A DNA stretch of 64,000 bases, from positions 8,747 to 72,746 of the forward strand of contig CAYQZD010000002.1 of assembly GCA_964421875.1 (NCBI GenBank), read 5' to 3'. This document shows positions 6,409-58,728 of the stretch, in pieces. Every line of letters begins with the position of its first letter. Position 1 is the first letter of the stretch. This DNA is from an uncultured bacterium (GTDB lineage: Bacteria; Electryoneota; Tariuqbacteria; Tariuqbacterales; Tariuqbacteraceae). The notes beneath the pieces are model-generated. The model was given only the letters and a program-made list of their open reading frames with translations, did not search any database and had not been told where the DNA came from. Both the position numbers and the translations under genes were made by a program.

Positions 6409-6804
6409 TTGCAGGTTATAATGTCGAGAAGGCATCACGATTGGATGGCGCAGGCCGAGGCTGATTTTAAGCACGCCGTTAATTCCAAGGAATGGGGCGA
6501 TTACGAATGGGCTTGCTTTGCGTCTCAGCAGGCGGCGGAAAAAGCGATAAAAGCCTTGATTGAGAGCAGAAATGGGAAAGCGATTGGTCACTCATTGAAA
6601 AAGTTACTCCAGCTTATTAATGTTGACGATAAGAATCTTATCGAAGCAGCTATAAGACTGGATAAACATTACATTCCCGCCCGATATCCTAATAGTTTCG
6701 ATTCCGGCGCTCCCAGTGATTATTATACTATCAAAGATGCTGAACAAGCGGTAATAGATGCGGAATCGATAATAAGGTATTGCCAAGACAATTTAGCAGG
6801 TTAA
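6409..6804 (+). CDS. HEPN-domain protein (putative toxin of a HEPN/MNT pair)
   Basis: ...QQAAEKAIKALI...RLDKHYIPARYP matches the HEPN domain pattern with an R-x(3-6)-H-like motif. Its stop overlaps the start of the nucleotidyltransferase gene. Confidence 0.7.
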   Translation: MQVIMSRRHHDWMAQAEADFKHAVNSKEWGDYEWACFASQQAAEKAIKALIESRNGKAIGHSLKKLLQLINVDDKNLIEAAIRLDKHYIPARYPNSFDSGAPSDYYTIKDAEQAVIDAESIIRYCQDNLAG

Positions 6805-7140
6805 ATGTCTTCGGAAACATATATTGAGTATCTTCGTAAAGAAGATGTAATCCCCATTGTTAAAGACGCCGCCGAGAAGATAAAAAAACTGCCTAATGTC
6901 TTGCGCATCGGATATTTTGGCTCCTTTGTCCGCAACGACCAGATTCCCGGTTCGGACATCGACATCTTCATCGAATTGGCGGATGATGACCGCAGATGGT
7001 TCGACCGGGCGGGGGATTTCATAGAATATTTTGATAAAGTCCCCTGCGTGGTGGAAATCTTCGCTTTTACCCGGCAGGAGATGTCGAATAAGGATAATAA
7101 GTTCTATCAAGAGGTTTTGCAGGAATTGGTTGAATTGTAA
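6805..7140 (+). CDS. Minimal nucleotidyltransferase (MNT) domain protein (putative antitoxin partner)
   Basis: GYFGSFVRNDQIPGSDIDIFIEL is the GS-x(n)-D-x-D Pol-beta-type NTase motif. 111 aa, directly follows the HEPN gene. Confidence 0.75.
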   Translation: MSSETYIEYLRKEDVIPIVKDAAEKIKKLPNVLRIGYFGSFVRNDQIPGSDIDIFIELADDDRRWFDRAGDFIEYFDKVPCVVEIFAFTRQEMSNKDNKFYQEVLQELVEL

Positions 7141-8399: not shown

Positions 8400-9413
8400 A
8401 TGCCAATCCTTTTTAAGGGCAAGGCAGGGGATTTGAAAATGTCCCCCAGCGAATTCAGCGGCGAGGATGAGTTAAAGGGAATTCTGACCCAGAATCCGGA
8501 ATTGCTGCTCGCCGACGGCGAGCCTCCGGCTGCCGTAGCGGGGGAGGGGGTCAATTTATCCAGCGCCGGCGAAACGGATTTACTGCTGGTGGATTCCGAG
8601 GGATTCCCGATGACGGTGGATGTATTGGTGAGGGGGAGCGATTTCAGCGCGTTTATCGCCTGCGCCCTTGATAACGCCTCGTCTATATCACGCTTCAACG
8701 CTAAAGAACTCGACCGAAAGCTGGAAGGGAAACTGGGAGGGGCGTTGGAGTCTTTTTATAGCAGTCTTAATGATTACTTCGCGGTGGAGCGGCGGTGGGA
8801 AGCCTGTGAGGCGTATCTTTCCCAAGGAAAAATCCGAATTATACTCGCCGTGGATGAGGTTTCCCCGGATATGATTCGCCTGGCGAAGTTTATCGGTTCC
8901 AACGCCAATTTCTTTGTCAGGTTAGTGGCAATTAGGAAGTATGAGCTTAAGCGCGGGGAAAACCTTTTGATACCGGAGATGGTGGTTCGCGGAGGGAGTG
9001 TTTCCGACTGCCCCAGGGTGAGGTTTTTGGCGGCGGCGGACGCTTATTCGATTGTCGCTTCCGGGGGATTCAAGCTGTCGGGCCAGGGTTTCGACCGGCG
9101 TGAGATTCACCCTAACGGCTGGGGGAGCGCCGTTTATTATGGATTGCGGGACAGCGGGGCGGAGGATATCAGCGTAGGGGTTTATGTGACGGAGGAGGTC
9201 AGCGGTCTTAATGAAGAACTTAGCGCGTTGGAAGGGGACATAGCCGGAGCGGTGAAATGGGGTATAACGCGCTGGAGTAACGAGGGAGAAGATGAAACCG
9301 GCAGGCTGGAAATCGCCTTCAACCAATCAACCTCTTCTATGGGAGTGGCTAAGGCTTTAAAAATATTGGTCGATATGACCAAGGAGAAGATTTCTGCGGC
9401 TTTGGGGATTTGA
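8400..9413 (+). CDS. Hypothetical protein (337 aa) inserted between gap and pgk; the N-terminal region resembles a degenerate PD-(D/E)xK / NucS-like fold
   Basis: No recognisable catalytic motif. N-terminal E..ELK.ILTQNPELL...GE.DLLLVDSEGFPMTVDVLV pattern. Co-directional and tightly packed within the gap-pgk-tpiA-secG block. Confidence 0.4.
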   Translation: MPILFKGKAGDLKMSPSEFSGEDELKGILTQNPELLLADGEPPAAVAGEGVNLSSAGETDLLLVDSEGFPMTVDVLVRGSDFSAFIACALDNASSISRFNAKELDRKLEGKLGGALESFYSSLNDYFAVERRWEACEAYLSQGKIRIILAVDEVSPDMIRLAKFIGSNANFFVRLVAIRKYELKRGENLLIPEMVVRGGSVSDCPRVRFLAAADAYSIVASGGFKLSGQGFDRREIHPNGWGSAVYYGLRDSGAEDISVGVYVTEEVSGLNEELSALEGDIAGAVKWGITRWSNEGEDETGRLEIAFNQSTSSMGVAKALKILVDMTKEKISAALGI

Positions 9414-12907: not shown

Positions 12908-13456
12908 TTATGCGTTTATTATATTCTTGGAAAATCGCTGCAGGTACTTGACAAACTTTTGTTTTTTATCGTTGTCCAACGCCAACGCTCTATGGATAAT
13001 TTCGAGTTGAATCAGGCTGGCTCTGATTTTTCCGTCACCTTCGGAGTCGAGGTTTACCACCGATTTCATCGCTGTATCGAATTGCACCAGCCGCCGCTCA
13101 AATTCCTGCCGCATCATCTTCGCCCGTTCTCGTCCCACCCGGACTTTCTGCGCGCGGTCCCGCTTTTCTTTCAGCCTTTTCAAGCCTTTGCGGTAGATAT
13201 CGCGAATTCTTGCGGCGGAATCCTGGTGTGCGCTTTCCCATAACTTAGAATCCTCAATCAACTGCGAGATAGTCACCAGGGAGCGTCCAGTGCCGAATTC
13301 AAGGGCTATTTCACCCAGTATTTCATGCAGGAGAGGGGTATGGTAGGAACGTTCTACCGGATAGCAGTTATTCTTTAGAAAGAGAATAACCGTGGTGGTA
13401 GCGAGGTTCAACTTCTTCGATACGTCTATGACCCGGATTGGTTTTGCAGAAGGCAT
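12908..13456 (-). CDS. Hypothetical protein with an IF2_N-like N-terminal HTH segment and a charged coiled-coil-like C-terminus
   Basis: KPIRVIDVSKKLNLATTTVILFLKNN resembles the IF-2 N-terminal domain. The rest is K/R/E-rich. Confidence 0.35.
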   Translation of the reverse strand: MPSAKPIRVIDVSKKLNLATTTVILFLKNNCYPVERSYHTPLLHEILGEIALEFGTGRSLVTISQLIEDSKLWESAHQDSAARIRDIYRKGLKRLKEKRDRAQKVRVGRERAKMMRQEFERRLVQFDTAMKSVVNLDSEGDGKIRASLIQLEIIHRALALDNDKKQKFVKYLQRFSKNIINA

Positions 13457-13684: not shown

Positions 13685-15163
13685 TCAGCGAATGATAATC
13701 ATCTTGACCGATTGCATCTCCCGGTCAGTTTCTACCCTTAGTACATAGAAACCATTGGACAGATTCAGGGAATTCGCGGTTTCAGGCATTTTAGCGAATG
13801 AAACGGTATTTAGAAGCGCCACCCGCCGCCCTAAAATATCATAGAGCGAAGCTTTCTTTATGATAGACTCTCCCGCGTTGAATGATATTTCTTTGAGACT
13901 GAGGGGCTGATGACCATATGATGTCTGTGATGGTCTCTGCCACGCAGGATTCAGTCTATGCGCATAAAGCAGTTGATGGTATCCTCGGTCAACCCGGCCC
14001 CGGTCGAAGGATTGGGTTTGAACGCCGGTGTAGTACTTCAGTCCCGCTTCGGAAACGCTCCGCGATCCGCTGTCGATTTCACGGCTGAAAACTGTAAGCA
14101 AATATGACTCACCCAGATTGGGTTCGCGAACCTCCTCGCCGCGACCGTTGACGCCATTGGCGGGCAGCGCGGACCGGTACTGTGAAAACCTCTGCAAAGG
14201 CCTGCCGTCGAAGCCCCCGAAACTGAAGCAGACCGAGCCGCTCTGATTGAACCAGGTATTGTGATGAAATCGATTGCTTTGAATCTGCGCCATAGTGTAA
14301 TCGACGGCGAAGATGGGAGAAATTCCGGGGTCGTTTTTCAGGCATATATTGTCAAAGATTCCGCAGTGAACGCAAGGTTCCGAGTTGGGGTCGGTGCCTC
14401 GGTACAAATGAATCCCCGGCGCTCGAGAAGTAATGATGGTGTTGTTGAATACCTGAGTGTTAATGGTGCGGTAGATGGTTATCCCGCCCGCGGGTTCTTC
14501 CCATTCTCCGTTATGATACAGCAGATTGGCGTAAATTTGATTATCGACGCTGCCTTTGATTCTGATGCCGGCTTCACCGCAATCGCTGATTACATTCCCG
14601 TATATGCGGGCGCCGAAGATGGTATCTTCAGGATTAGACTGTCTGACAAATATCCCTATCTGGCATCCGTAAATATTATTATAACGAACCGTTACATTCG
14701 TACCCGCTATCTTCACCCCTGGAGTGTGTCCGTAGTATGAGTTTCCCGTGGCGTTGCTGAAATGAAAGTTTTGGATGACTACATTGTGAGTCGAGTATTC
14801 GACCGCGATACAAGGTTCAAGCTGCGAAGATACCGCCTGAATATGCGCCCGTTCGCATTCATTCCATTCCACTCCCTGAAACACAACCGGACTGCTTAAA
14901 GTATGACTTTGCTCGACAGAAATATGTATAGTGGACAGGGTCGAGCTTGAATCCACAGTATAGACGCCGGGAAGAACGTTCACAGTATCTCCGGGGAGCA
15001 GTGTGTGAAAACCGGGATGACAAGCGTATCCGGGATGGGGCCAGGGATTTTCATAAGTTCCGAGGAAAGGAGGAATACGATTGTTGTCATCCACCCAATA
15101 AACACCACCCCAGGAAATGCAGGAATACAGGATGCCTAGGAGAAATGCAATTTGCGGTCGCAC
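13685..15163 (-). CDS. Secreted right-handed beta-helix (pectate-lyase-fold) protein with a T9SS C-terminal sorting domain
   Basis: Signal peptide MRPQIAFLLGILYSCISWGG. Repeated N.xI..N / G..I.G parallel beta-helix rungs (VVIQNFHFSNATG, VTVRYNNIYGCQIGIF, IYGNVISDCGEAGIRI). C-terminal ...LYDILGRRVA...GFYVLRVE...KMIIIR CTD. Confidence 0.65.
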   Translation of the reverse strand: MRPQIAFLLGILYSCISWGGVYWVDDNNRIPPFLGTYENPWPHPGYACHPGFHTLLPGDTVNVLPGVYTVDSSSTLSTIHISVEQSHTLSSPVVFQGVEWNECERAHIQAVSSQLEPCIAVEYSTHNVVIQNFHFSNATGNSYYGHTPGVKIAGTNVTVRYNNIYGCQIGIFVRQSNPEDTIFGARIYGNVISDCGEAGIRIKGSVDNQIYANLLYHNGEWEEPAGGITIYRTINTQVFNNTIITSRAPGIHLYRGTDPNSEPCVHCGIFDNICLKNDPGISPIFAVDYTMAQIQSNRFHHNTWFNQSGSVCFSFGGFDGRPLQRFSQYRSALPANGVNGRGEEVREPNLGESYLLTVFSREIDSGSRSVSEAGLKYYTGVQTQSFDRGRVDRGYHQLLYAHRLNPAWQRPSQTSYGHQPLSLKEISFNAGESIIKKASLYDILGRRVALLNTVSFAKMPETANSLNLSNGFYVLRVETDREMQSVKMIIIR

Positions 15164-15390
15164 AATACAATTTTTAAATTTCGTTGAAATATAGTACTGA
15201 TTATTTTCAACTAAATTCGTGGGATAATATACACTAATTATAGGAAAAATGCAAATAGTAATAACGATATAATTAAAATTATTTGCATTATCACTGCTTT
15301 ATCAAGTTGCCTTTAGTTACTAATATGTTGAGAGTGTTGATAAATAACTTATGCTGTAACTTAATATTTATATTAACAAACACTTAGTCA

Positions 15391-16072
15391 TGTCATCCTG
15401 AACGAAGTGAAGGATCTCCATTTTTCAACAAGTATATAATTAACAAAGAGATTCTTCGCTTCGCTCAGAATGACAACGCTATCTATCAACGCTCTCATAT
15501 TAAGCGACTCAAACATAGTATTAATTAAAATGGATAATAGTGGACAGTGTAAGAACATAAAGGAATTTATCACCTGAATGTAGTGAAAGATTTCATCTTG
15601 TTTATTAACTTGAAATTAAGTATAGATTCTTCACTCCGCCTGCGGCGGGCTCAGAATGACAACATTAACGATGTACACTATTAAACGACGTGATTAATAT
15701 ATTTGGCTCTTCTCCATTTTAGTTGCAAGTATCAAGTACAAATCAAAGCTGGGGCATTAGCCCAAAAGAAGCGCGCTTGTCATTCCGAGCGAAAGCCGGA
15801 ATCCAGTTTTTTCTTAAAAGAGATTTTCCTGGACTCCCGCTTTCGCGGGAGTGACAACGTTTTGAGAATTAATCATCAGAGCAACGAGCGTTATTCCGAA
15901 AAGCAAGATATTTTGCAACTACTTTGGAGATGAACCATATATCTTATTAATCGAGCTTCATGCAAAAGTCAGGAATTTCCGAGTTTGTCATTCTGAACGT
16001 AGTAAAGAATCTATTGTTTATTAAGATGTTAGATAAAACTGAGACCCTTCACCTCGTTTAGGGTGACACTTC
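15391..16072. repeat. Array of four ~85-nt composite inverted-repeat (MITE-like) elements in an AT-rich non-coding region
   Basis: Elements at 15391-15476, 15571-15663, 15778-15858 and 15986-16072. Each has a ~27-nt arm TGTCA-NNN-TGAACGAAGTGAA-N'N'N'-TC, a ~30-nt AT-rich spacer, and the inverted arm. The NNN/N'N'N' positions covary (TCC/GGA, TTC/GAA, CCC/GGG, TTCCG/CGGAA). Confidence 0.75.
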
Positions 16073-16470
16073 GTGCCGATTTTTACCAGTAATTCAATCG
16101 AATAAATTAATGCGAGACCAATTGTAGATAAGTCTCATTTTCAGTAAAACGGAAATGCGATTAATATTATATGAAGTTAAGCAAAAAGGTTGTCATTATT
16201 TACCCACTTTGACGCGTGAAATTTTGAAATTTTAATCTAAAAAACTTAAATTAATTAGATTATCCCTCATAGGAGGATTTCGGCTGCGATTTCGCATCCC
16301 GAAAGATGAAAATATATGCTTTTCAAGGAAGCGGTAAGACCATTTTTCAAAGCGAAATCAGGTCTTCGCCCGATTAATCGAGCTAAAGCCCTGGCTTTAC
16401 AGAAAAAGACTCTTGGTAGATAAGGACTTAACCATAGGTCTGCCGCTATTAACAGTGAAATAAATGGAAT

Positions 16471-17787
16471 ATGCCGCAGAGTGATATAAGTTCCGGAGTT
16501 ATGGGATCCGGCGTGGTGGGAGCCGGAGGCGCCGGATTTCCTTCACACCTGAAACTCAAAGCGGCGGTGGACACGGTAATCGGCAATGGGATTGAGTGTG
16601 AACCGCTGTTGTCTCAGGATAGGGCGGTGATGGTTCACCGTCCCGAAACCGTAATCAAGGGACTGAGTTTACTGGCTGAAGTTGTGGGGGCGCGGAGAAA
16701 GATAATCGTTCTCAAGAAGAAGTATGCCGACGCGATGCGGGCGCTGGAACCTTTCTGCGATGAGTGTGAAATCATCTTGACGCCGGATTATTACCCCGCC
16801 GGCGACGAAGTCGAGATTGTGAAATTCCTCAGCGGCGAAACTGTCCCCGAAGCCGGGCTCCCTCTCGATGTCGGTGTGGTGGTCAACAATGTGGAAACCC
16901 TAACGAACATCGCCCGCGCCTGCGAGGGTATCCCCGTGACGCGCAGGTTCGTCACCGTCTGCGGTGAAGTAAAGAAACCAACGGTCCTAAGTGTTCCCCT
17001 CGGAACGAAAATCAGCGATATTGTGGACAGATGCGGGGGAGCGACCACGGACAATCCGGTCTATTACACCGGCGGGCCGATGATGGGGGAGATTGCCGGC
17101 GCCGATTCTCCGGCGCTGAAAACCACCACCGGCATCTTCGCGCTTCCCCAGGAACATGAGCTGGTCCGCGCCAGGTCGCTGCGGATGGAATACATCCTGC
17201 GCCAGGCGCAGTCCGCCTGCACCTCCTGCAGGCTCTGCACCGACGCCTGCCCCAGATACCTGCTGGGGCACGCAATCGAACCTCATCGCGTTATGCGCGC
17301 CATCGGCTTGACTCAGGATATATTCAAACGCGAACTCACCTCGGCTCTGTTATGCAGTGAATGCGGCGTTTGTGAATACGCCTGCCCTATGCGGCTATCT
17401 CCGCGAAGGATCTATCGGCAAATCAAAGAATATTTGGCCGCCGAGGGAATTGAGTATCCCCGCAGGATGACCAGACTCAGCGACCACCCGATGCGGGAAT
17501 CCCGCCGTATTCCCGGCGGGCGTCTGCTGGAAAGACTGGGGCTTAAGCGCTACGAGGTCCGGATGGACTACGACGATTCCGGCTGGTCTCCCCAGGAGGT
17601 CGCTCTTCCCCTCAAGCAGCATATCGGTCTTCCCGCGCAGCCGGTGGTCTCACCCGGAGACAGGGTGATTGAAGGAGAGGTGATAGCGGAAATTCCTCCT
17701 GGAGCGGTCAGCGCCCGGCTGCACGCTTCAATCGACGGTAAAGTGACGGCTGTTGACGATGACAAGATAATCATAGGGGCGGTATGA
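16471..17787 (+). CDS. PduS-like RnfC-family Fe-S flavoprotein (NADH-binding; two 4Fe-4S motifs)
   Basis: Begins almost directly with GVVGAGGAGFPSHLKL (NADH/FMN-binding motif shared by RnfC, PduS and NuoF) without the RnfC N-terminal barrel. SLBB-like region. CTSCRLCTDACP and CSECGVCEYACP ferredoxin motifs. 438 aa, matching PduS architecture. ATGA-coupled to a PduT-like gene. Confidence 0.7.
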   Translation: MPQSDISSGVMGSGVVGAGGAGFPSHLKLKAAVDTVIGNGIECEPLLSQDRAVMVHRPETVIKGLSLLAEVVGARRKIIVLKKKYADAMRALEPFCDECEIILTPDYYPAGDEVEIVKFLSGETVPEAGLPLDVGVVVNNVETLTNIARACEGIPVTRRFVTVCGEVKKPTVLSVPLGTKISDIVDRCGGATTDNPVYYTGGPMMGEIAGADSPALKTTTGIFALPQEHELVRARSLRMEYILRQAQSACTSCRLCTDACPRYLLGHAIEPHRVMRAIGLTQDIFKRELTSALLCSECGVCEYACPMRLSPRRIYRQIKEYLAAEGIEYPRRMTRLSDHPMRESRRIPGGRLLERLGLKRYEVRMDYDDSGWSPQEVALPLKQHIGLPAQPVVSPGDRVIEGEVIAEIPPGAVSARLHASIDGKVTAVDDDKIIIGAV

Positions 17788-18350
17788 ATCCATTCGAAGA
17801 GAAAAAAAACGCGCTGGGGATGGTGGAGTGGAACTCTATCGCCCTGGGAATTTTCGCCGCCGACGCGATGCTCAAAGTCTCCGAAGTGGAATTGATTTAC
17901 GCCAACACTATCTGTCCCGGTAAATACATTTGCGTGGTCAGAGGCGATGTGGCGGCGGTGAAGGCTTCGGTGGAAGCGGGAAAGGACGCTTCACCTGTGA
18001 GTGTGGTGGATGAGATGGTGATTCCCAATCTGCACTCCACGGTATTCCCCGCCATCAACTCCCTCACTTGCGCGGAGAAGGTCGACGCGGTGGGCATCAT
18101 CGAGACCTTTTCCGCAGCTTCAGCTTTGGTGGCGGCGGATCGAGCCGCTAAGACCGCGGAAATTCTACTGCTATCGGTGAGGCTGGCAACCGGATTGGGG
18201 GGGAAGTCTTTCGTGGTGGTGACCGGGGAAGTGGCGGCGGTGCGTTCTGCAGTGGAAGCCGGCGCGCGAACCGCTGAAGACAAGGGGCTGCTGGTGTATC
18301 GAACGGTGGTGCCTCAGCCGGAGCCCCGCTTGTTTGAAAAATTGAATTAG
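17784..18350 (+). CDS. Tandem BMC-domain shell protein, PduT-like (BMC-T with a conserved Fe-S-ligating Cys)
   Basis: Two BMC domains: ALGMVEWNSIALGIFAADAMLKVSEVELI...VVRGDVAAVKASVEAG and AVGIIETFSAASALVAADRAAKTAEI...VVVTGEVAAVRSAVEAG. TICPGKY matches the PduT cluster-ligating Cys strand. C-terminal GLLVYRTVVPQP matches the PduT tail. 188 aa. Confidence 0.8.
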   Translation: MNPFEEKKNALGMVEWNSIALGIFAADAMLKVSEVELIYANTICPGKYICVVRGDVAAVKASVEAGKDASPVSVVDEMVIPNLHSTVFPAINSLTCAEKVDAVGIIETFSAASALVAADRAAKTAEILLLSVRLATGLGGKSFVVVTGEVAAVRSAVEAGARTAEDKGLLVYRTVVPQPEPRLFEKLN

Positions 18351-18387
18351 AATACTAATAACTCAATAATCATCGGGAGAATCGACT

Positions 18388-18729
18388 ATGAAAATGAACG
18401 TTAGGGAACATGAACAGTTCGTAGTGGTAGAACTCAAGGGAAAGATTATGGGAGGACCTGACGCCACGGTTTTTCACGATATGCTTAAGGAATTAATCGC
18501 CCAAGGCCGGCGGCGGTTCATCTTAGATTTGAACAAGGTTGACTGGATGAACAGTTCCGGTCTCGGTATCCTGATTTCCGGGATGACTACTATCCGCAGC
18601 GCTCAGGGGGAACTGAAATTAGCCAGAATCTCGAATAAAATCAAGAGCCTGCTGATGATTACCAAACTGATCACAGTATTTGACAGCTATGAAACGGTAG
18701 AGGACGCCGCCGCCAGTTTCGCTAAATAA
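18388..18729 (+). CDS. STAS-domain anti-sigma-factor antagonist (SpoIIAA/RsbV-like)
   Basis: 113 aa. ...ILDLNKVDWMNSSGLGILI... STAS pattern with the conserved phospho-Ser region. Confidence 0.8.
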   Translation: MKMNVREHEQFVVVELKGKIMGGPDATVFHDMLKELIAQGRRRFILDLNKVDWMNSSGLGILISGMTTIRSAQGELKLARISNKIKSLLMITKLITVFDSYETVEDAAASFAK

Positions 18730-18805
18730 TCCCGGGTATTCAGAGAAAATTTATTCAGAGAACAAAAGCATCAATTGACGGCTGCTTAATGAGGTCCTAT
18801 TCGCG

Positions 18806-20188
18806 GTGAGTGAGATTATCGATTTACTGCAATCGGTCCGCCTTGGCGTTGCTGATTTTTCCGGCAAGCTCTTATCCAAGGAGGATTCGGAGGACTGCGC
18901 GTTTCTGGTAAAGCGCGTGGAAACGGGCTTGCTCCGAGCTGTCGAACTGACTCAAGAGCACGAGCGCAGGGACCGGCTCTTCGATGAGCTTTACTACAAT
19001 GTGGGCTCGAAACTCAACGCGACCTTCGACCAGAACGAGTTGCTTGATAACATCATAGATGCGCTGGGACAGCTTATAAGCTTCGATGCCGCCGGGATTT
19101 TCCTGGTAGATACGGATACCGGGAATATTGAGGCAGAAGTTATCAAGGGATACCGGAAAGAGTTCCTGGGCAGCGTGCATCAGAAAGTTGGCGAGGGCGT
19201 CCTCGGCTGGGTGATAGAAAGCGCCCAATCGGTCAGACTTGCCGACGTCCGAAATGACGACCGTTATATCGACGCCCGTCCCGAAACCCGTTCGGAGGTC
19301 GCGGCGCCGATGGTTAGCGAAGGTAAGGTGATTGGCTGTATCAACCTGGAAAGCGATAAAATCGCCGCCTTCAGCGAAGAGGATGTCGCCCTGCTGGAAA
19401 CATTCGCCACCCAGGCTTCGCTGGCGGTGCAGCGAGCCAGATTGTACCGTGAGTTAGTCGATACCAAGCGCTTGGAAGAGGAGGTGGCGCTGGCGAGGAA
19501 GATTCAGACCTCGCTTCTGCCCAAGAAGCCGCCTCAATTTCCGGGGTACGATCTGGCCGGAATGAACATTCCTTCAACTGAAGTCGGGGGAGATTATTAC
19601 GATTTCATTCGTTTAATAGGCGGGGGTTTGGGATTGGCAATCGCCGACGTCTCCGGCAAGGGAATCGGAGCCGCGTTTATTATGTCCGGCGTGAGGGCTT
19701 CGCTCAGGGCGGAAATCCGTCACAACCTTGACCCCAGTATGTTGATGCACAAAGTCAATCACTTTGTTTATGAGAGCACCGACTCCGGCAGTTTCGTGAC
19801 CGCTTTCTACGGAGTTTTGAATGGCGATGAATTCAATTATGTCAACGCCGGACATAATCCGCCTATTTTGATGCGAGGCGACCAGAGTTTCATTATGCTG
19901 GAGGACGGCGGATTGGTGCTGGGGCTGGCGGAGGAACAGCATTTCCGCGAGGGGAGGATACATCTGGAACCGGGTGATACGCTATTGCTATACACCGATG
20001 GCGTGTCGGAGGCTATGAATCGTCAAGAGATGGAATTTGGCGCGGAACGTTTGATTGAGGCGTTAAAGGAATCTCAGGGAATGAGCGCCAATGTCAAGGT
20101 GGATTTCATCCACCGCAATGTAAGAGATTTCGCCGGCAGGTCGAAACAAGCGGATGATTTGACCATAATGGTGGTGAACAAAATATGA
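18806..20188 (+). CDS. GAF-domain PP2C-family serine phosphatase (RsbU/SpoIIE-like); GTG start
   Basis: N-terminal GAF (GVLGWVIESAQSVRLADVRNDDRY). C-terminal PP2C/SpoIIE domain (EVGGDYYDF, LGLAIADVSGKGIGAA, LLLYTDGVSEA, DDLTIMVV). Confidence 0.85.
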   Translation: MSEIIDLLQSVRLGVADFSGKLLSKEDSEDCAFLVKRVETGLLRAVELTQEHERRDRLFDELYYNVGSKLNATFDQNELLDNIIDALGQLISFDAAGIFLVDTDTGNIEAEVIKGYRKEFLGSVHQKVGEGVLGWVIESAQSVRLADVRNDDRYIDARPETRSEVAAPMVSEGKVIGCINLESDKIAAFSEEDVALLETFATQASLAVQRARLYRELVDTKRLEEEVALARKIQTSLLPKKPPQFPGYDLAGMNIPSTEVGGDYYDFIRLIGGGLGLAIADVSGKGIGAAFIMSGVRASLRAEIRHNLDPSMLMHKVNHFVYESTDSGSFVTAFYGVLNGDEFNYVNAGHNPPILMRGDQSFIMLEDGGLVLGLAEEQHFREGRIHLEPGDTLLLYTDGVSEAMNRQEMEFGAERLIEALKESQGMSANVKVDFIHRNVRDFAGRSKQADDLTIMVVNKI

Positions 20189-20625
20189 GAGAGGTCGAAA
20201 AATTGGTAATTCCCTCAGACCAGGATGAACTTCCCCGGGTCGACGAAGCCGCCGATAGAATCGCCAGGGAGATGGGTTTTAGCAAGGAGGAGCGCGATGA
20301 TATCGCTATTTCCGTATCAGAAGCGGTCAACAACGCTATCCTGCACGGCAATCGCGGCGACAAGAAGAAGAAGGTGATTATCACCTTCTTCAAGCGCGAT
20401 GATTCCCTGATAGTTAAAGTTAAGGACCAGGGCACCTGTTTCGATCCTGAGCGCGATTTACCTCAGGACCCCACCTCGCCGGATAATATTCTGAAGGAGA
20501 AAGGGCGGGGGGTTTTCATCGTGCGGCATTTGATGGACGAAGTAAGCTATAACTGCTCCTCCGACGGGACGGAGATGGTGATGGTCAAGTTGAAAACGCC
20601 CCGCGAAATTCTGTCTTCTAAGTAA
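20185..20625 (+). CDS. RsbW/SpoIIAB-type anti-sigma regulatory factor (Ser/Thr protein kinase, HATPase_c)
   Basis: 146 aa, EAVNNAILHGN N-box and GRGVFIVRHLMDEV G-box. Start overlaps the phosphatase stop. Confidence 0.8.
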   Translation: MREVEKLVIPSDQDELPRVDEAADRIAREMGFSKEERDDIAISVSEAVNNAILHGNRGDKKKKVIITFFKRDDSLIVKVKDQGTCFDPERDLPQDPTSPDNILKEKGRGVFIVRHLMDEVSYNCSSDGTEMVMVKLKTPREILSSK

Positions 20626-20696
20626 TGAAAGAAAATAACACAACCGTGGTGCCGGGTCTCCGCATTCGGCGCCAAATAATAATTATTATTGAATAT

Positions 20697-20722
20697 GCTG
20701 TCGACTGCGGAGAGTCGACAGC
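20697..20722. terminator. Hairpin (family C REP-like) plus T-run after the partner-switching operon
   Basis: GCTGTCGACT-gcggag-AGTCGACAGC followed by ACACTTTT. Confidence 0.45.
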
Positions 20723-20771
20723 ACACTTTTAGTATTTGGGCGAAGGCCCCTTTAGAAACCGCTAAGTTACT

Positions 20772-20813
20772 AACTTGCGGACTTGTAAACTTGTCAACTT
20801 GTTAACTTATTCT
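20772..20813. promoter_or_regulatory. Five tandem copies of the octamer ACTTGTNA upstream of the 3-hydroxyacyl-CoA dehydrogenase gene
   Basis: aacttgcgg/acttgtaa/acttgtca/acttgtta/acttattc. The same octamer also repeats at 57519-57556. Confidence 0.35.
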
Positions 20814-20830
20814 AAGATAAAGGTAAGCGA

Positions 20831-21784
20831 ATGGTCAATCAAGAGTTCGAAGAAATAATAGGCAAACCGCTGGAGATTGACGATAAGGATCCCCAGAATC
20901 TGGTTCAAGCCGGTATGGTTGGCGCTGGGACTATGGGTCAGGGCATAGCCCAGTTAATGGCTCAGAACGGAATCGATGTGCTGTTGGTGGAGAAGGATAA
21001 GGAATCGTTGGAACGCTCCCTCCAGGAGTTGGCTGAGAGTATGGATCGTGAAATCAGGCGTTGGGGAATGACCGCCTCGGAAAAACGAGCGGTGCTCTCC
21101 CGTATCGTGGGCACCGTAGATTACGAAGAACTGGGAAGAGTCCCTTTGATAATCGAATCTGTCCCGGAAGACCTGAAAATCAAGCAGGATTTATTTCAGC
21201 ATATCGATGAGGTCTGCCGTGAAGACGCCATTTTAGTCTCCAACACCTCAACCCTCAGCCTTTCGGAAATCGCCGCGGTGACCAGCCGCCCGGAAAATGT
21301 CATCGGTATGCACTTTATGAATCCGGTGACCAAAACTACATTGGTGGAAGTTATCCGCGGCTTGAAAACTGCGGAAACCACTTTCAATTATATCAAAGGC
21401 TTCGCCGAGCGCATCAACAAAGTGGTGGTGGAAGTCTACGAATATCCGGGATACGTAACTACCCGGATAATCATTCCTATGCTCAACGAGGCGATGTATG
21501 TTTTAATGGAGGGTGTCGCCACCGCCGAAGGTATCGACACCGCGATGAAGCTGGGCTACAACCTGAATTTCGGTCCCCTGGAATTTGCCGACATAATGGG
21601 GCTGGATGAAGTGATGAAATGGATGGAAACACTGTTCCACGAGCTGGGCGACCTTAAATACCGGCCCTGCCCCCTGCTGAGGAAACTGGTTAGAGCCGGG
21701 CACCTGGGTAAAAAGACCGGCGCAGGATTCTTCAAATACGACAAGGATGGCAACAAGATCAAGAGCCCGGGTTTAGGGATTTAA
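20831..21784 (+). CDS. 3-hydroxyacyl-CoA / 3-hydroxybutyryl-CoA dehydrogenase
   Basis: GMVGAGTMGQGIAQ Rossmann motif and NTSTLSLSEIAA...GMHFMNPV; C-terminal 3HCDH domain. Confidence 0.85.
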   Translation: MVNQEFEEIIGKPLEIDDKDPQNLVQAGMVGAGTMGQGIAQLMAQNGIDVLLVEKDKESLERSLQELAESMDREIRRWGMTASEKRAVLSRIVGTVDYEELGRVPLIIESVPEDLKIKQDLFQHIDEVCREDAILVSNTSTLSLSEIAAVTSRPENVIGMHFMNPVTKTTLVEVIRGLKTAETTFNYIKGFAERINKVVVEVYEYPGYVTTRIIIPMLNEAMYVLMEGVATAEGIDTAMKLGYNLNFGPLEFADIMGLDEVMKWMETLFHELGDLKYRPCPLLRKLVRAGHLGKKTGAGFFKYDKDGNKIKSPGLGI

Positions 21785-21947
21785 GGAAAGTCTGAGTAAG
21801 AATGTAATAGCCTATGATTTTTAAGTAATAGTCATATTGCCATTCCGGCTTGCTTCGCAGCCAGAATAATCCTATCACTTCAGGTGCGAGAGTGTTATAG
21901 TTTAATAAGAAATTGTTTAGTAACAGGAATTAACAGAATAAAATAGA

Positions 21948-23180
21948 ATGAAAATACTGATTCTCAACTGCGGTTCCTCCTCCGTGAAATATCAGTTGAT
22001 GGATATGACCGAGAGGAAGGCGCTGGCCAAGGGATTAGTGGAGCGTATCGGGATGAGGGGAGCCATCCTCACGCACTACCGCTATGACGGGGATAAAGTG
22101 AAAATAGCCGGGGAAATCATCGACCATCAGATGGCTATAGAATTCATCCTCGGAATTCTGCTGTCTCCCAATCACGGAGTGATAAAAGATCGGAGGGAAA
22201 TCGAAGCGGTGGGGCACCGCGTGGTTCACGGCGGCGAAAGGTTCACCGGCTCGGTGCTCATCAACGCCGATGTAATGGAGGGACTGCATGACTGCATCGA
22301 CCTGGCGCCCCTGCACAATCCCCACAACATCAAAGGCATCCGCGCCTGCCAGCGGCTGCTGCCCGGATTGCCGATGGTGGGGGTGTTCGACACCGCTTTT
22401 CATAGCACCCTACCGGATTATGCTTTTACCTACGGTATACCCTATCTGCTATACAAACGATACTCCCTCCGCCGCTTCGGCTTTCACGGAACCTCCCACT
22501 ACTATGTGTCCCAGGAAGCGGCTAAAATGATGGATAAGCCCATTACCGAATTGAAAATGATTACCTGCCATCTGGGAAACGGCTGCAGCGCCGCCGCTGT
22601 GGATAAAGGCCGGTCGGTCGATACCACGATGGGATTCACCCCGGTGGAAGGGCTGCTGATGGGTACCAGGTGCGGAGATTTGGACCCCAGCGCCATTTTG
22701 TACATCATCAGCCGCGAAGAGCTGACTATGGGAGAAGCTAACGCGCTTATGAATAAGCATTCCGGGATGCAGGGCATCTCCGGCGTATCCTCCGATATGC
22801 GGGAAATCCTGGAAGAAACTAATAACGGCAATAAGCGCGCCGAACTCGCTTTGGATGTATTCTGCTATCGTTTGAAGAAATATATCGGCTCCTACGCTGT
22901 CGCGATGAGCGGTTTGGACGCCATCATTTTCACCGGCGGTATCGGCGAGAAAGCCGCTGAAGTGCGCCGCCGCACCCTGCAGGGGATGGAATTCCTCGGC
23001 GTGAAACTCGACGAGGAGAAAAACGCCGCCTCAAAAGGTGAACAAGGCATCGTTTCCACCGAAGATTCCAGTGTCTCCGTGCTCGTTATTCCCACTAACG
23101 AAGAGTTGGTGATTGCGATTGACACTGAAAGAATCGTTAAGGAAATTAAAACGGAAACCGCCGCTGCAACGGAAAAGTAA
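21948..23180 (+). CDS. ackA: Acetate kinase
   Basis: MKILILNCGSSSVKYQL, HRVVHGGE, ITCHLGNG(C)S and FTGGIGE motifs. Confidence 0.9.
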   Translation: MKILILNCGSSSVKYQLMDMTERKALAKGLVERIGMRGAILTHYRYDGDKVKIAGEIIDHQMAIEFILGILLSPNHGVIKDRREIEAVGHRVVHGGERFTGSVLINADVMEGLHDCIDLAPLHNPHNIKGIRACQRLLPGLPMVGVFDTAFHSTLPDYAFTYGIPYLLYKRYSLRRFGFHGTSHYYVSQEAAKMMDKPITELKMITCHLGNGCSAAAVDKGRSVDTTMGFTPVEGLLMGTRCGDLDPSAILYIISREELTMGEANALMNKHSGMQGISGVSSDMREILEETNNGNKRAELALDVFCYRLKKYIGSYAVAMSGLDAIIFTGGIGEKAAEVRRRTLQGMEFLGVKLDEEKNAASKGEQGIVSTEDSSVSVLVIPTNEELVIAIDTERIVKEIKTETAAATEK

Positions 23181-45597: not shown

Positions 45598-46260
45598 ATG
45601 AATCATCATGAGCATAAATGCGAGCGCAGGAGGCACGAGGAAGTGGTCGAAATCATCGGACTGCATCTGGAGCAGGGCGAAGTTGGGATTCCGGACCTGC
45701 AGGAGCATGACATTACCCTTCCCCGGCTGCAGGAGTTGGTGGATAGTAATCACATCTTAATTGAAGACGACAAAGTCCAATTTCGGAAAAAAGGAAAGCG
45801 CGAATTTCTCAGCATCATCCGCCGCCACCGATTGGCAGAGAGGCTGCTGCACGATGTCCTGGATTACTCGGACGAAGACGGCTCCGAGGAAATCGTCGGG
45901 AAAATGGAACATATCCTCAACGAGGATGTGACCGACAGCATCTGCACCCTCCTGGGGCATCCCGCCTCCTGCCCCCACGGACTCCCCATTCCAAGGGGAA
46001 GGTGCTGTGAACTTAAACAGGACAAGATTCCTGCCCTGATAACCTCGCTGAACCGGATGGAGCCCGGCGAGGAGGGAGTCGTCGCCTTCATCTCCACCAC
46101 CGACCATGACAAGTCGGATCGGCTGGCGGCGATGGGAATCATCCCGGGCGTGAGCATCAAACTCCATCAGTTGAAACCCGCTGTAGTCGTAATGTTCGAT
46201 GAAACCGTGCTCTCTATGGATGAGGAATACGCACAGATAATATACCTCCGCCGAAAATGA
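45598..46260 (+). CDS. DtxR-family regulator with a fused C-terminal FeoA/SH3-like domain
   Basis: RRHRLAERLLHDVL...CPHGLPIP (DtxR dimerisation and metal-site region). C-terminal EPGEEGVVAFI...MGIIPGVSIKL...VVVMFDET FeoA-like domain. Confidence 0.65.
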   Translation: MNHHEHKCERRRHEEVVEIIGLHLEQGEVGIPDLQEHDITLPRLQELVDSNHILIEDDKVQFRKKGKREFLSIIRRHRLAERLLHDVLDYSDEDGSEEIVGKMEHILNEDVTDSICTLLGHPASCPHGLPIPRGRCCELKQDKIPALITSLNRMEPGEEGVVAFISTTDHDKSDRLAAMGIIPGVSIKLHQLKPAVVVMFDETVLSMDEEYAQIIYLRRK

Positions 46261-47756
46261 TTAAAACCAATTGGAAAGACTGGATAGAGCGGGACCTGTA
46301 CCGTGAGCGGATGTTCCTCAAAGGGCTCATCCTGCTCCTTTCAGCCTGGCATCTTGGGGTGATACTGTGGGTGGGATTCCACCGCTTTGCCTACCCTTTC
46401 GAGTTGGAATGGACTGAAGGCGCTGTAATCCAGACTGCAATCCGAATTCTGAATGGTCTTCCCATTTACACCAATCCTGGCCTGGAATGGGCCTCGCCGC
46501 TCTCGTCGCCGCTTTATTATTATTTGGGCGCGGCTTTAATGAGTGTGTTCGGAGAGGGATTCGCTGCGCTCCGAATTATCTCGCTCTGCGCCTCCATCGG
46601 AACTGGTCTCCTTATATACCGTTTCCTCCGGAACCTAGAAATCGAAGACCTCTATGCTTTCGCCGGATTCGGTCTCTATTTTGCCGCTTTCTCCGCCGCC
46701 GGAGGATGCTACGATCTGGCGCACCGAGATTCATTGGCCCTGTTGCTCGCCTTAAGCGCTTATTTCATTATCTCCCCGAAAGGAGGTTGGGAAAGAGCAG
46801 CTCTAAGCGCCGCAGCGGTGACTCTGTCAGTATTCACCTCACAATACTATCTTCTGATATCAATCTTATTAGGAATATTCTGGTTCGTTCAGGAACGCCG
46901 AAATTTCTATGTTTACCTCGTGACCTGTATGTTACTGGGCGCCGCCGGAGTTAGTCTGTTATACGCTAAAAATGGCTTGCCGTTTTTAAGAGTTATCATC
47001 ACTTTACCCCGCTTCGAACCGGGACATATCATCACTTTTTGGTTGACGGAATGTCCCGGAAGATTTCTGCCGTTATGCCTGATGAGTATACCGGCATTCT
47101 ATCTCCTGGCGAGAAAAATTAAACGGGAATTTAATAAGCAAGCCCTGCTGTTTATGATGTTATGCGCAGGGCTCATAATCGTATCCTATATTGGATTTAT
47201 CAACGGTTCCGAATATGGAAACGCCTTTATGCCCGCAGGATTGGCGCTGGCGGCTATAGCCGCCTGGACTCTGCAGTATTTCAAGCTGAATGATTACAGG
47301 CTGGGCTGGCTGTTACCGGTCGCAGTCAAGGTTTTGGTGATAGCGCAGCTTTGCTTGTTGATTGTGCCGCCTCAGACTATGGTTCCCACCGAAGCCGATA
47401 CCGGCGCGGGCCGAGGCTTGATAGACAAGATTGCCTCGATTGATGGTGAAGTTTATATCCCCAAACACGGATATTATGAATATTTGGCCGGGAAAGAAAG
47501 TCATTTCCCCTGGGCGCATCTGTCGCAAATTACCGGCAGGACAGGGGAGGAAGCGCTGAGCAGGATTCCCGAAGACATCAAACGGGAAATAAAGGAAAAA
47601 CGCTTCAGCGCTATAATACTCGATGAACCTGCGGAATTCTGGCTGGAGTTCATCAGCCCTTATTATTATCTTGATGAAGAAATCTTCGAACAGCCGGGAG
47701 TATTTAAAACCAAAGCCGGTGAAATCACCCGCCCCCAATTCATCTTCAGACCGTAA
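46257..47756 (+). CDS. Polytopic membrane protein, paralogue-like of the N-terminal part of 37167..39146 (GT-C-fold glycosyltransferase suspected)
   Basis: About 11 TM helices and a soluble C-terminal ~110 aa; start overlaps the upstream stop. Confidence 0.35.
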   Translation: MIKTNWKDWIERDLYRERMFLKGLILLLSAWHLGVILWVGFHRFAYPFELEWTEGAVIQTAIRILNGLPIYTNPGLEWASPLSSPLYYYLGAALMSVFGEGFAALRIISLCASIGTGLLIYRFLRNLEIEDLYAFAGFGLYFAAFSAAGGCYDLAHRDSLALLLALSAYFIISPKGGWERAALSAAAVTLSVFTSQYYLLISILLGIFWFVQERRNFYVYLVTCMLLGAAGVSLLYAKNGLPFLRVIITLPRFEPGHIITFWLTECPGRFLPLCLMSIPAFYLLARKIKREFNKQALLFMMLCAGLIIVSYIGFINGSEYGNAFMPAGLALAAIAAWTLQYFKLNDYRLGWLLPVAVKVLVIAQLCLLIVPPQTMVPTEADTGAGRGLIDKIASIDGEVYIPKHGYYEYLAGKESHFPWAHLSQITGRTGEEALSRIPEDIKREIKEKRFSAIILDEPAEFWLEFISPYYYLDEEIFEQPGVFKTKAGEITRPQFIFRP

Positions 47757-57518: not shown

Positions 57519-57556
57519 CTTGTTACTTAACACTTGATACTTGTTACTTGTAACTT
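57519..57556. repeat. ACTTGTTA octamer direct repeats at the 3' end of gene 57544..58728
   Basis: acttgtta-cttaac-acttgata-cttgttacttgtaac; the same octamer family occurs at 20772-20813. Confidence 0.4.
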
Positions 57557-58728
57557 TTTTGCTTCCGAACCATCCTGTAAATAATCCATCCCAATACTAT
57601 CACCAGAATCACAGCCGCGCCGCCAATCCTAAATGGACGGTAAATCGTGGAAATCGCAGCCAAAGTCACAGTTGAATCCGCCAAAGTCTCCCCGTTGAAT
57701 TCCCAAACCAGCCATCGCCTCACTTCCCCTGTGCCGGTGCTGTCAACAACCATTGAATCGGCATTGGAACTGCGAATCACACCCGGAAGCGATACTTCAA
57801 CCTTAAAACCGTCGTCGCCCAGGTCCTTGGTTATATCGTACTCCCGAGCCAGCATCCGACCCACACTGCGCATATCCAGAAAGAAAGTGGTGTCACCCAG
57901 AAAATTCAACTGCTCCTCGATTATACCGTAACCGCTGTCCTGAACCGTGTTCCAAAGGTCGCAAACATCCTCTGCCTCCTCCACCCGGACATTGTCCATC
58001 GCTATGTGTAAAAATTCCACCAAAGCGGCTTCGGCGGAAGACAGCGTCTCCACTGATATTTCAATCTCAGGGTGCATCTCCAGAGATTTACGCACCGAAC
58101 TGAGGAAACGGGATTGGAAGACTTGGATTCCCCAGCGGACGTAGCCGTCGCGGAATTCCCCCTCAAGCCTCTCTTTGGTGGAATCGTCCAGGGATTCGGC
58201 TTCTTCCAACGCCCGGACTTCCTCCGGAATATAATCGAAGGGATCGCCGTAAAGCTCAGCCTTACGCCGGCTCTCAAATCGAAAATCGAGAATGTAATTC
58301 ACCATAAAAAACAGCTCCTGACGCTGAGCCTTTAAAGGATGGCGCAGGTCGAGCTGGGCGTAATCCACATAATCGACTCCGAAACTTTCCGGAAGAGGGC
58401 GCCGCTTGCTCGGACGGAAATGACGCCAAGCCCGGTAAAAGTAGCTGGTGTCGGGGCTGTCGCCGGAAGTGTCGATGTCAGTACCCTCCTCAACCTCCCA
58501 CATTACCGTGTCGGGCAGAGAATTCAGCCCGTCGTAAAGGTCGGCGCTGTCGCCGCTGGCAGTGTATTCGTAACTGACTCTTCCATCCTCAAGCGCCGTG
58601 ATTTTATACTCGTGCATCAAACAGGAATTGAGCAGTAATAAGCAGACCGAAAGAAAAACCACCATCTTGACAGCCAGTGGAAATGAAAACCGACTGAGCC
58701 CGAAAAATGAGTCCTCTGAAACTCTCAC
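57544..58728 (-). CDS. Hypothetical lipoprotein with a C-terminal TM anchor (394 aa), unknown function
   Basis: Lipobox-like LLLLNSC after the N-terminal hydrophobic segment; acidic soluble domain; C-terminal hydrophobic helix followed by KQKSYK. Confidence 0.4.
   Translation of the reverse strand: MRVSEDSFFGLSRFSFPLAVKMVVFLSVCLLLLNSCLMHEYKITALEDGRVSYEYTASGDSADLYDGLNSLPDTVMWEVEEGTDIDTSGDSPDTSYFYRAWRHFRPSKRRPLPESFGVDYVDYAQLDLRHPLKAQRQELFFMVNYILDFRFESRRKAELYGDPFDYIPEEVRALEEAESLDDSTKERLEGEFRDGYVRWGIQVFQSRFLSSVRKSLEMHPEIEISVETLSSAEAALVEFLHIAMDNVRVEEAEDVCDLWNTVQDSGYGIIEEQLNFLGDTTFFLDMRSVGRMLAREYDITKDLGDDGFKVEVSLPGVIRSSNADSMVVDSTGTGEVRRWLVWEFNGETLADSTVTLAAISTIYRPFRIGGAAVILVIVLGWIIYRMVRKQKSYK

Follow-up and report, generated by a model that had tools for sequence, protein, structure and literature searches.

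The stretch of DNA analysed here (64 kb in total, hereafter the window) belongs to a relative of Candidatus Tariuqbacter arcticus, of the phylum Electryoneota within the FCB group. On its forward strand lie two overlapping genes for predicted microcompartment proteins, directly followed by a set of partner-switching genes:

16471..17787, + strand: flavo-iron-sulfur protein of the PduS type, an MNdh (metabolosome NADH dehydrogenase), predicted from Pfam domains in permuted order
17784..17787, + strand: ATGA stop/start overlap of 4 nt that couples the PduS-type and PduT-type genes, read from the sequence
17784..18350, + strand: tandem-BMC shell protein of the PduT trimer type (BMC-T^SE) that has a cysteine at the pore, predicted from two PF00936 domains and PduT homologs in the PDB
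18388..18729, + strand: STAS-domain protein of the anti-sigma antagonist type (PF01740), a conserved neighbour with a hypothetical functional link to the pair
18806..20188, + strand: GAF-PP2C phosphatase of the SpoIIE/RsbU type (PF07228 plus GAF), a conserved neighbour by synteny
20185..20625, + strand: RsbW-like HATPase_c_2 kinase/anti-sigma protein (PF13581), a conserved neighbour by synteny
20696..20723, + strand: possible terminator-like hairpin with an 11-bp stem, 3' of the RsbW-like gene (consensus scan, weak evidence)

The open reading frames of the pair comprise 438 and 188 codons, respectively. The start of the PduS-type gene is ambiguous, with ATG codons at 16471 and 16501 and a GTG at 16513, the last being the start in the gene call for an identical PduS-type gene at locus L001. 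An earlier note on this DNA had described the two genes as translationally coupled, and the overlap is indeed present. The pair is kept in loci L003 to L010, and the PduS-type gene is translationally coupled to the BMC-T gene in every locus examined.

The upstream product carries the N-terminal GAGGAGFP and both CxxCxxCxxxCP motifs from which, together with its length, a PduS architecture had been proposed in that note, and the Pfam domains bear this proposal out: Complex1_51K (residues 12-148) is followed by SLBB (161-206), a 2x[4Fe-4S] domain (249-310) and a C-terminal RnfC_N barrel (373-432). This order is circularly permuted relative to RnfC and is that of MNdh/PduS proteins. In the PDB its closest relatives are RnfC chains, which align in two swapped stretches. 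Identity amounts to 60-61% with the counterparts in two close relatives (L003, L004) and to 37-43% with the PduS proteins from three canonical loci (L006, L007, L010).

For the downstream product, a Pfam scan found two PF00936 BMC domains (E 3e-46), and the protein matches solved PduT-type trimers over its full length (3nwg, 7e-52; 3pac, 2e-47; 3n79, 2e-44), as expected from the tandem-BMC, PduT-like character ascribed to it before. The cysteine of the TICPGK strand, which had been regarded as the cluster ligand, is Cys44; it aligns without gaps with chain residue 58 of 3pac (C. freundii PduT), corresponding to native Cys38 provided that the additional 20 residues in the 204-aa chain represent an N-terminal tag. 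Cys44 is invariant in our alignment A1, as are Gly46, Lys47, the DxxxK edge motif of each domain and P81/H84. Each of the 18 close homologs (identity 74-100%) keeps the CPGK motif, and orphan BMC-T genes without PduS carry C-S-G-K in the same alignment. With the NCBIfam equivalog model eut_PduT (TIGR02526) the protein scores 128.7 bits against a cutoff of 250.3, so that it does not count among the orthologs of enteric PduT. It does combine tandem PF00936 domains, a CP(G/S)K pore motif and an adjoining MNdh/PduS gene, the features by which BMC-T^SE proteins are recognised. Judged by their predicted products, the genes at 16471-17787 and 17784-18350 are a real PduS/PduT-type (MNdh/BMC-T^SE) pair, a module known to export electrons from bacterial protein organelles.

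The pair stands alone in the window. A six-frame phmmer search of the 64 kb with both BMC domains returned the 17784-18350 reading frame only, and phmmer searches with queries from a complete locus found no BMC-P, acylating aldehyde dehydrogenase (AldDh), PduL or BMC-H. Pfam scans of essentially all plausible window genes agree with this result, as they revealed otherwise housekeeping functions and no further microcompartment gene; they likewise found no rnf genes in the window, hence no rnfDGEAB near the PduS-type gene, and Rfam and tRNA scans of the window gave nothing relevant. The isolation of the pair reported in the earlier note therefore holds for all 64 kb, and its neighbours are those named there, i.e. 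the STAS, GAF-PP2C and RsbW-like genes, hbd, ackA and nfnAB (Pfam scans). A shell gene just past the right end of the window looks unlikely, as no hit of the search with the extended BMC-H of T. arcticus lies on an 81,932-bp contig, the length of the longest one bearing the window PduT.

In close relatives the same pair occurs together with shell genes on other contigs. In T. arcticus (bin.685) it lies on contig k141_3068177 (L003) in the same synteny, with 83% identity of PduT, and the published KEGG table of this MAG lists EutM on k141_1109456 and k141_4424130, a single EutN entry (K04028) on k141_5121901 and an acetylating AldDh (K00132) on k141_4463188. Single BMC genes are dispersed over four or five contigs in this organism, and the EutM on k141_1109456 is a BMC-H of 154 aa with a tail of about 60 aa. 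In the MAG BS750m-G18 the pair is situated on JADHWD010000003 (L004; PduT identity 79%), and a standard BMC-H of 95 aa and a C-terminally extended BMC-H of 164 aa are encoded on JADHWD010000207 (L018). A T9SS beta-helix protein upstream in the window and that encoded between these two BMC-H genes are not orthologs. Six candidate orthologs of the extended BMC-H traced after a search with the T. arcticus protein (P0139, P0153, P0133, P0136, P0140 and P0148) come from other samples, none from the two that hold the window PduT (SRR24302423 and SRR8146443).

Outside the lineage, the pair is found within complete loci in Firmicutes (L006, L007) and in Coatesbacteria (L010), the latter with the order AldDh-?-BMC-H-PduL-BMC-P-PduS-TPR-PduT and with nfnAB and pgk alongside. 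Isolated BMC fragments are present in neighbouring phyla (L009, L014, L034, L035). The Peptidase_C1_2 gene cut by the right end of the window shares 53% identity with a peptidase gene placed after the extended BMC-H of L015 and L016.

Stand-alone PduS/PduT pairs have been described for the FRAG1, FRAG6, FRAG7, HO, PVM and ACI types of microcompartments (Sutter 2021, PMC8217296; PNAS 2024, PMC11626177). In 97% of loci the MNdh gene sits next to that of BMC-T^SE, all BMC-T^SE proteins carry the CP(G/S)K motif, and the module is often placed in satellite loci (PMC11626177). FRAG1 loci are shell-only and dispersed, with the PduS/T pair found in 24 of 57, and with a second BMC-H whose C-terminus carries a large extension; PduS/T satellites are known from FRAG6, FRAG7 and HO too, and in one genome of Zixibacteria a PduT-type protein and a BMC-P are encoded at scattered positions (PMC8217296 supplement). 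Since related bacteria with fragmented microcompartment gene sets are known to show such a separation, the location of the window pair is ordinary. We therefore regard it, with a probability of roughly 0.8, as the MNdh/BMC-T^SE module for electron export from a microcompartment of the fragmented-locus kind (FRAG-type, FRAG1-like) in an Electryoneota host. The BMC-H, extended BMC-H, BMC-P and aldehyde dehydrogenase of this compartment would be encoded singly elsewhere in the host genome.

By analogy with the characterised systems, the BMC-T^SE trimer would tile into a shell facet, and the three Cys44 residues at its central pore may hold one [4Fe-4S] cluster. MNdh would dock on the lumenal face of the trimer and oxidise NADH produced inside the compartment by the acylating aldehyde dehydrogenase. 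Electrons would then pass from FMN over the two [4Fe-4S] clusters of MNdh and the pore cluster to some cytosolic acceptor, and this export may regenerate NAD+ without an alcohol dehydrogenase.

The resemblance to the described MNdh/BMC-T^SE module (PMC11626177) comprises the four-domain permuted PduS, the tandem-BMC partner with CPGK, the immediate adjacency and the satellite position. The window pair, which we assign from sequence alone while AldDh and shell genes are known from relatives, differs in being followed by a partner-switching module, an arrangement unreported for the family. With FRAG1 (PMC8217296) the lineage shares an FCB host, the PduS/T pair and shell genes as scattered singletons, the dispersal being seen in the relatives; the extended BMC-H typical of FRAG1 is present in BS750m-G18 (164 aa, besides the one of 95 aa) and in T. 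arcticus (154 aa). However, Electryoneota lie outside the phyla given for FRAG1. FRAG1 has a BMC-P triplet (green, grey and orange clades), against one EutN listed for the T. arcticus MAG, which is about 80% complete, and FRAG1 is shell-only by description, whereas T. arcticus possesses an acylating AldDh as well. The PduS-PduT of the Salmonella/Citrobacter Pdu system is alike in fold, in the Cys38-equivalent ligand and in the PduS domain set, but the window lacks a pdu operon and a B12-dependent diol dehydratase and its PduT-type protein stays under the eut_PduT cutoff; a role of the window pair in cobalamin reduction is unlikely. Finally, RnfC of the Rnf ferredoxin:NAD+ oxidoreductase likewise has an NADH/FMN domain, SLBB and two [4Fe-4S] clusters, but the domain order in the window is permuted, genes for membrane subunits are lacking close by, and the partner is a shell protein.

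This last resemblance could be taken to mean that the upstream gene encodes the RnfC subunit of an Rnf complex, with the BMC protein as an unrelated neighbour. The TIGR01945 rnfC score of 250.3 is marginally over the cutoff of 245.95, and the published KEGG table enters the ortholog of T. arcticus as RnfC (K03615). Nevertheless, this reading is hardly credible, given the C-terminal instead of N-terminal RnfC_N barrel, the absence of rnfDGEAB nearby, the coupling to a BMC-T gene in all loci examined and the presence in T. arcticus of a separate, better-scoring RnfC (559 versus 277 bits) together with rnfD and rnfB. It is also highly improbable that the pair is a decaying, non-functional remnant of a lost microcompartment locus. 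The related pair beside nfnAB and pgk in the complete Coatesbacteria locus is compatible with an erosion around the pair, but both reading frames are intact and coupled, all cofactor motifs are kept, and PduT is 77-84% identical to the window across the lineage, on a par with hbd (78%) and ackA (80%). A further alternative, already raised in the earlier note, is that the PduT-like trimer and its PduS-like partner act as a free soluble NADH:acceptor oxidoreductase without any microcompartment. The absence of further BMC genes from the 64 kb, the position among the central-metabolism genes hbd, ackA and nfnAB and the recurrence of isolated pairs (L009, L034) would fit such a relay. On the other hand, the edge motifs that serve in tiling (P81/H84 and the DxxxK of either domain) do not vary, FRAG, PVM and HO types are documented to have the pair isolated as a rule, and BMC-H, BMC-P and AldDh are encoded on other contigs in the closest relatives, where the pair is isolated too; for this last reason a metabolosome module is most likely, and a shell-free relay very unlikely. 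Of the two readings offered in that note, the relay thus received no positive support, and the satellite reading is the supported one in view of the BMC genes of the relatives, except that these are scattered single shell genes and not a canonical complete locus.

The position of the pair directly upstream of the STAS/GAF-PP2C/RsbW-like module is a new feature and a constant one in this lineage. The order PduS-PduT-STAS-PP2C-RsbW-hbd is common to the window, T. arcticus (L003) and loci L011, L012 and L013, despite differing upstream genes; a flgM remnant was not found upstream of the window PduS, though relatives carry flgM there. The gaps in the window are short (38 nt between PduT and STAS, 77 nt between STAS and PP2C), the RsbW-like gene overlaps the phosphatase gene by ATGA, and from 15100 to 22000 a consensus scan found no terminator-like site on the + strand other than the hairpin after the RsbW-like gene, hence none between PduT and STAS, in a region where the total number of such sites is not above shuffled expectation. 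One could thus suppose that the pair was captured in this Tariuqbacteria-like lineage into one transcription unit with the module, being co-regulated with it as a sigma-factor or phospho-switch or feeding it a redox signal, which we consider unlikely. A functional tie beyond co-expression, e.g. a switch from compartment redox state to a sigma factor, with a shell or without, appears quite unlikely. The linkage is absent outside the lineage (L005, L009, L010, L034), a promoter-like site at 18342-18370 lies ahead of the STAS gene, the gap widens to 50-95 nt in relatives, no known mechanism joins these families, and adjacency within a narrow clade may reflect simple inheritance.

Taken as an electron-export module of a fragmented microcompartment, the pair behaves as the 2021 catalog (PMC8217296) and the 2024 study of MNdh/BMC-T^SE (PMC11626177) describe, and the current understanding of these proteins is unchanged. 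Electryoneota, with the class Tariuqbacteria, become one more candidate phylum encoding fragmented-locus microcompartments. The earlier note had called the lineage one not known for microcompartments; this stands insofar as no description for Electryoneota was found in the literature searched, but not as regards the genomes, since the relatives encode shell proteins. The EutM and EutN entries of T. arcticus are undiscussed in the main text of its publication, and the PduS homolog bears the RnfC label in the KEGG table. If the tie to the partner-switching genes were true, the unit would constitute an undescribed regulatory link from the redox state of a microcompartment to gene expression. FRAG-type compartments have no known substrate, and an NAD+-recycling module beside hbd, ackA and nfnAB, in a lineage dominant in a sulfidic water column, could hint at their chemistry.

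The pair consists of two overlapping genes, listed here with the Pfam domains of the first product:

16471-17787, + strand: PduS-type (MNdh) ORF, 438 aa
PduS-type protein, residues 12-148: Complex1_51K
PduS-type protein, residues 161-206: SLBB
PduS-type protein, residues 249-310: two-cluster ferredoxin domain
PduS-type protein, residues 373-432: C-terminal RnfC_N barrel
17784-18350, + strand: PduT-type (BMC-T^SE) ORF, 188 aa

The PduT-type product matches the BMC domain PF00936 twice and significantly (Pfam scan, E 3e-46), and solved PduT-type trimers align over its full length (3nwg, 7e-52; 3pac, PduT of C. freundii, 2e-47; 3n79, Salmonella PduT, 2e-44), which bears out its earlier reading as a tandem-BMC, PduT-like protein. 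Cys44 of its TICPGK motif, the cluster ligand proposed in the earlier note, falls without gaps on chain residue 58 of 3pac, which corresponds to native Cys38 provided that the 20 surplus residues of that chain (204 aa) form a tag at its N-terminus; in PduT, Cys38 is the [4Fe-4S] ligand. In an alignment of 12 PduT-type sequences with identities down to 47%, Cys44 is invariant, as are Gly46, Lys47, Pro81/His84 and the DxxxK edge motifs, one per BMC domain (Asp27/Lys31 and Asp119/Lys123). The upstream product has the PduS architecture likewise ascribed to it: its four domains stand in permuted order, and the barrel and the catalytic part align with RnfC cryo-EM chains in swapped order, which is the PduS permutation. 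Its start is ambiguous (16471, 16501 or 16513), with the same domain architecture for any of these, and its stop overlaps the PduT start in the expected ATGA (17784-17787).

Such pairs were renamed MNdh/BMC-T^SE in a 2024 PNAS study (PMC11626177), according to which 97% of loci have the two genes side by side, a CP(G/S)K motif is universal among BMC-T beside MNdh, and the module is in some types commoner in satellite than in main loci (PVM 18/20); lumenal NADH is oxidised by MNdh, and electrons cross the shell via three [4Fe-4S] clusters. The pair of the window fits this module in every sequence criterion. The BMC catalog of Sutter et al. 2021 (PMC8217296) defines satellite loci as well as fragmented (FRAG) types, with shell genes in up to six places, which are found in Ignavibacteriae, related phyla and many candidate phyla; separately placed PduS/T pairs also occur in FRAG6, FRAG7 and HO, and its trees include a Zixibacteria genome whose BMC-P and PduT-type protein are each labelled 'fragmented (sat)'.

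The claim that the 64 kb hold no other microcompartment gene stands. Six-frame phmmer searches with either BMC domain found no ORF beyond 17784-18350, and searches with BMC-P, acylating aldehyde dehydrogenase, PduL and BMC-H from a complete Ca. Coatesbacteria locus (L010) found nothing further in the window. Pfam scans of essentially all plausible window genes returned housekeeping functions only and no further BMC gene (the set includes pfk, gap, pgk, tpi, secG, hbd, ackA, nfnAB, yceD, rpmF, plsX, fabHDF, rnc, acyl-CoA dehydrogenase, feoB, mutS, and lapAB and miaB-like genes). A HEPN/nucleotidyltransferase toxin-antitoxin pair lies at 6409-7140, and sizeable ORFs without a Pfam match at 8400-9413 (337 aa), 46257-47756 (499 aa), 57544-58728 (394 aa) and 12908-13456 (-) (182 aa). 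A Peptidase_C1_2 gene (63117-64000, -) runs off the window end and shares 53% identity with the peptidase directly after an extended BMC-H in two comparison contigs (L015, L016), and because of this resemblance a shell gene could lie just past the window end; but none of the extended BMC-H hits is on a contig of 81,932 bp, the length of the longest one with the window's PduT, so the two regions are probably not syntenic.

Ca. Tariuqbacter arcticus bin.685 is the nearest genome (identities: PduT 83%, PduS 60%, hbd 78%, ackA 80%), and the Black Sea MAG BS750m-G18 comes second (PduT 79%); two contigs of the window's own organism are 100% identical. NCBI taxonomy places Tariuqbacter in Ca. Electryoneota (FCB group), and the describing paper puts it basal to Zixibacteria and Calditrichota. 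The block PduS-PduT-STAS-GAF/PP2C-RsbW-like-hbd is kept in four related contigs (L003, of T. arcticus, L011, L012 and L013; PduT 77-84% identical to the window's), and in the longer ones ackA, nfnAB, yceD, rpmF and plsX follow as in the window. The DNA fetched from these contigs and from the organism's own two (L001, L002) holds no further BMC gene. MNT/HepT and HicAB modules are inserted at the hbd-ackA junction in relatives (L011 14031-15901), which is uninterrupted in the window. Upstream of PduS, relatives have flgM and fliS, and the window has a T9SS beta-helix protein and a repeat-rich gap of 1.3 kb. This AT-rich gap carries at least six REP-like palindromic units in both orientations (15390-16070; core TCAGAATGACAA / TTGTCATTC(T/C)GA), and a stretch that matches is found in BS750m-G18 downstream of PduT (L004 11056-11132).

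Shell genes are known from the relatives. In the KEGG table published for T. arcticus bin.685, hbd is k141_3068177_10 and ackA is _19, which shows that it describes the same MAG as our comparison contig; it lists, on four contigs other than that of the pair:

k141_1109456_3 and k141_4424130_3: EutM
k141_5121901_9: EutN
k141_4463188_9: acetylating aldehyde dehydrogenase (K00132)

The first EutM, a BMC-H of 154 aa, carries a C-terminal tail of about 60 aa, and its neighbours encode T9SS proteins and a HicB antitoxin. As a query it retrieves a family of extended BMC-H proteins (150-170 aa), one of which (P0139) lies in BS750m-G18 on JADHWD010000207; a standard BMC-H of 95 aa is 2.8 kb away, with genes for a methyltransferase and a T9SS beta-helix protein between the two, and the same MAG has its PduS/T pair on JADHWD010000003. 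The six candidate orthologs of the extended BMC-H that were traced, P0139 among them, come from samples other than those of the window. Both nearest relatives thus combine an isolated pair with dispersed shell genes, alike in this to FRAG1; 'FRAG1-like' is meant as an analogy by features, not as a formal type assignment. The suggestion that the pair is a satellite of BMC genes elsewhere gains support from this, and the shell-independent redox relay offered beside it found no positive support.

That the PduS-type gene encodes RnfC fails on its permuted domain order, on an unfitting gene context and on a separate, better-scoring RnfC in T. arcticus. The T. arcticus table (PMC10439189, Supplementary Material 2) names the PduS homolog k141_3068177_5 RnfC (K03615, 277 bits) and gives the true RnfC 559 bits. 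A decaying remnant of a lost locus is argued against by the invariant residues, by the CPGK motif kept in 18/18 homologs of at least 74% identity, and by a lineage-wide conservation of PduT on a par with hbd and ackA; the same conservation argues for a retained tiling ability of the protein. A link of the pair to the partner-switching module (18388-20625), the sole feature absent from the literature, has in its favour an adjacency conserved in the Tariuqbacter-like lineage, all of whose contigs have the module immediately after PduT, and a hairpin after the RsbW-like gene (20696-20723), the only + strand terminator-like site between 15100 and 22000. Against it, the STAS gene has a promoter-like site in front, the PduT-STAS gap in relatives (50-95 nt) is wider than in the window, and the linkage is not present in the other phyla examined.

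In those phyla, the complete Coatesbacteria chromosome (PduT 51% identical) has a compact locus, AldDh-unknown-BMC-H-PduL-BMC-P-PduS-TPR-PduT, followed by 2-oxoacid:ferredoxin oxidoreductase, nfnAB and pgk, and two Firmicutes (L006, L007) have canonical loci. The pair stands alone in an Elusimicrobiota contig (L009) and in a 186-kb contig (L034), there followed by citrate lyase genes. In L014 and in the genome of LCP-89 (L035) the BMC-T is an orphan that lacks a PduS partner and lies beside alaS or PduL. Fragmentation of BMC genes is thus general in these phyla. The orphans (L014 10001-12817, CSGK; L035 9166-13058, CPGK, with PduL before it) are followed by a conserved ORF of 137-143 aa without Pfam match and an ABC exporter. 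PduS-PduT near nfnAB and pgk in Coatesbacteria (L010 4464-16743) and near ackA in Firmicutes (L007 5232-16353) echo the window's hbd-ackA-nfnAB neighbourhood; this may be coincidence, or it may reflect a functional link that recurs (acyl-phosphate to ATP; redox balancing).

The literature searched holds no discussion of BMCs for this phylum, and because PMC10439189 leaves the EutM, EutN and acetylating aldehyde dehydrogenase entries of its table undiscussed, BMC capacity in Electryoneota appears to be unreported. The observation is real and its biology ordinary: the MNdh/BMC-T^SE pair most likely belongs, as a satellite, to a fragmented set of BMC genes. It is best supported as an electron conduit that regenerates NAD+ for a fragmented-locus metabolosome, with cluster binding, docking and electron flow inferred from the characterised family: lumenal MNdh would oxidise the NADH made by acylating aldehyde dehydrogenase, and electrons would pass from FMN via both MNdh clusters to a pore cluster held by the ring of Cys44 residues in the BMC-T^SE trimer, and from there to a cytosolic acceptor.
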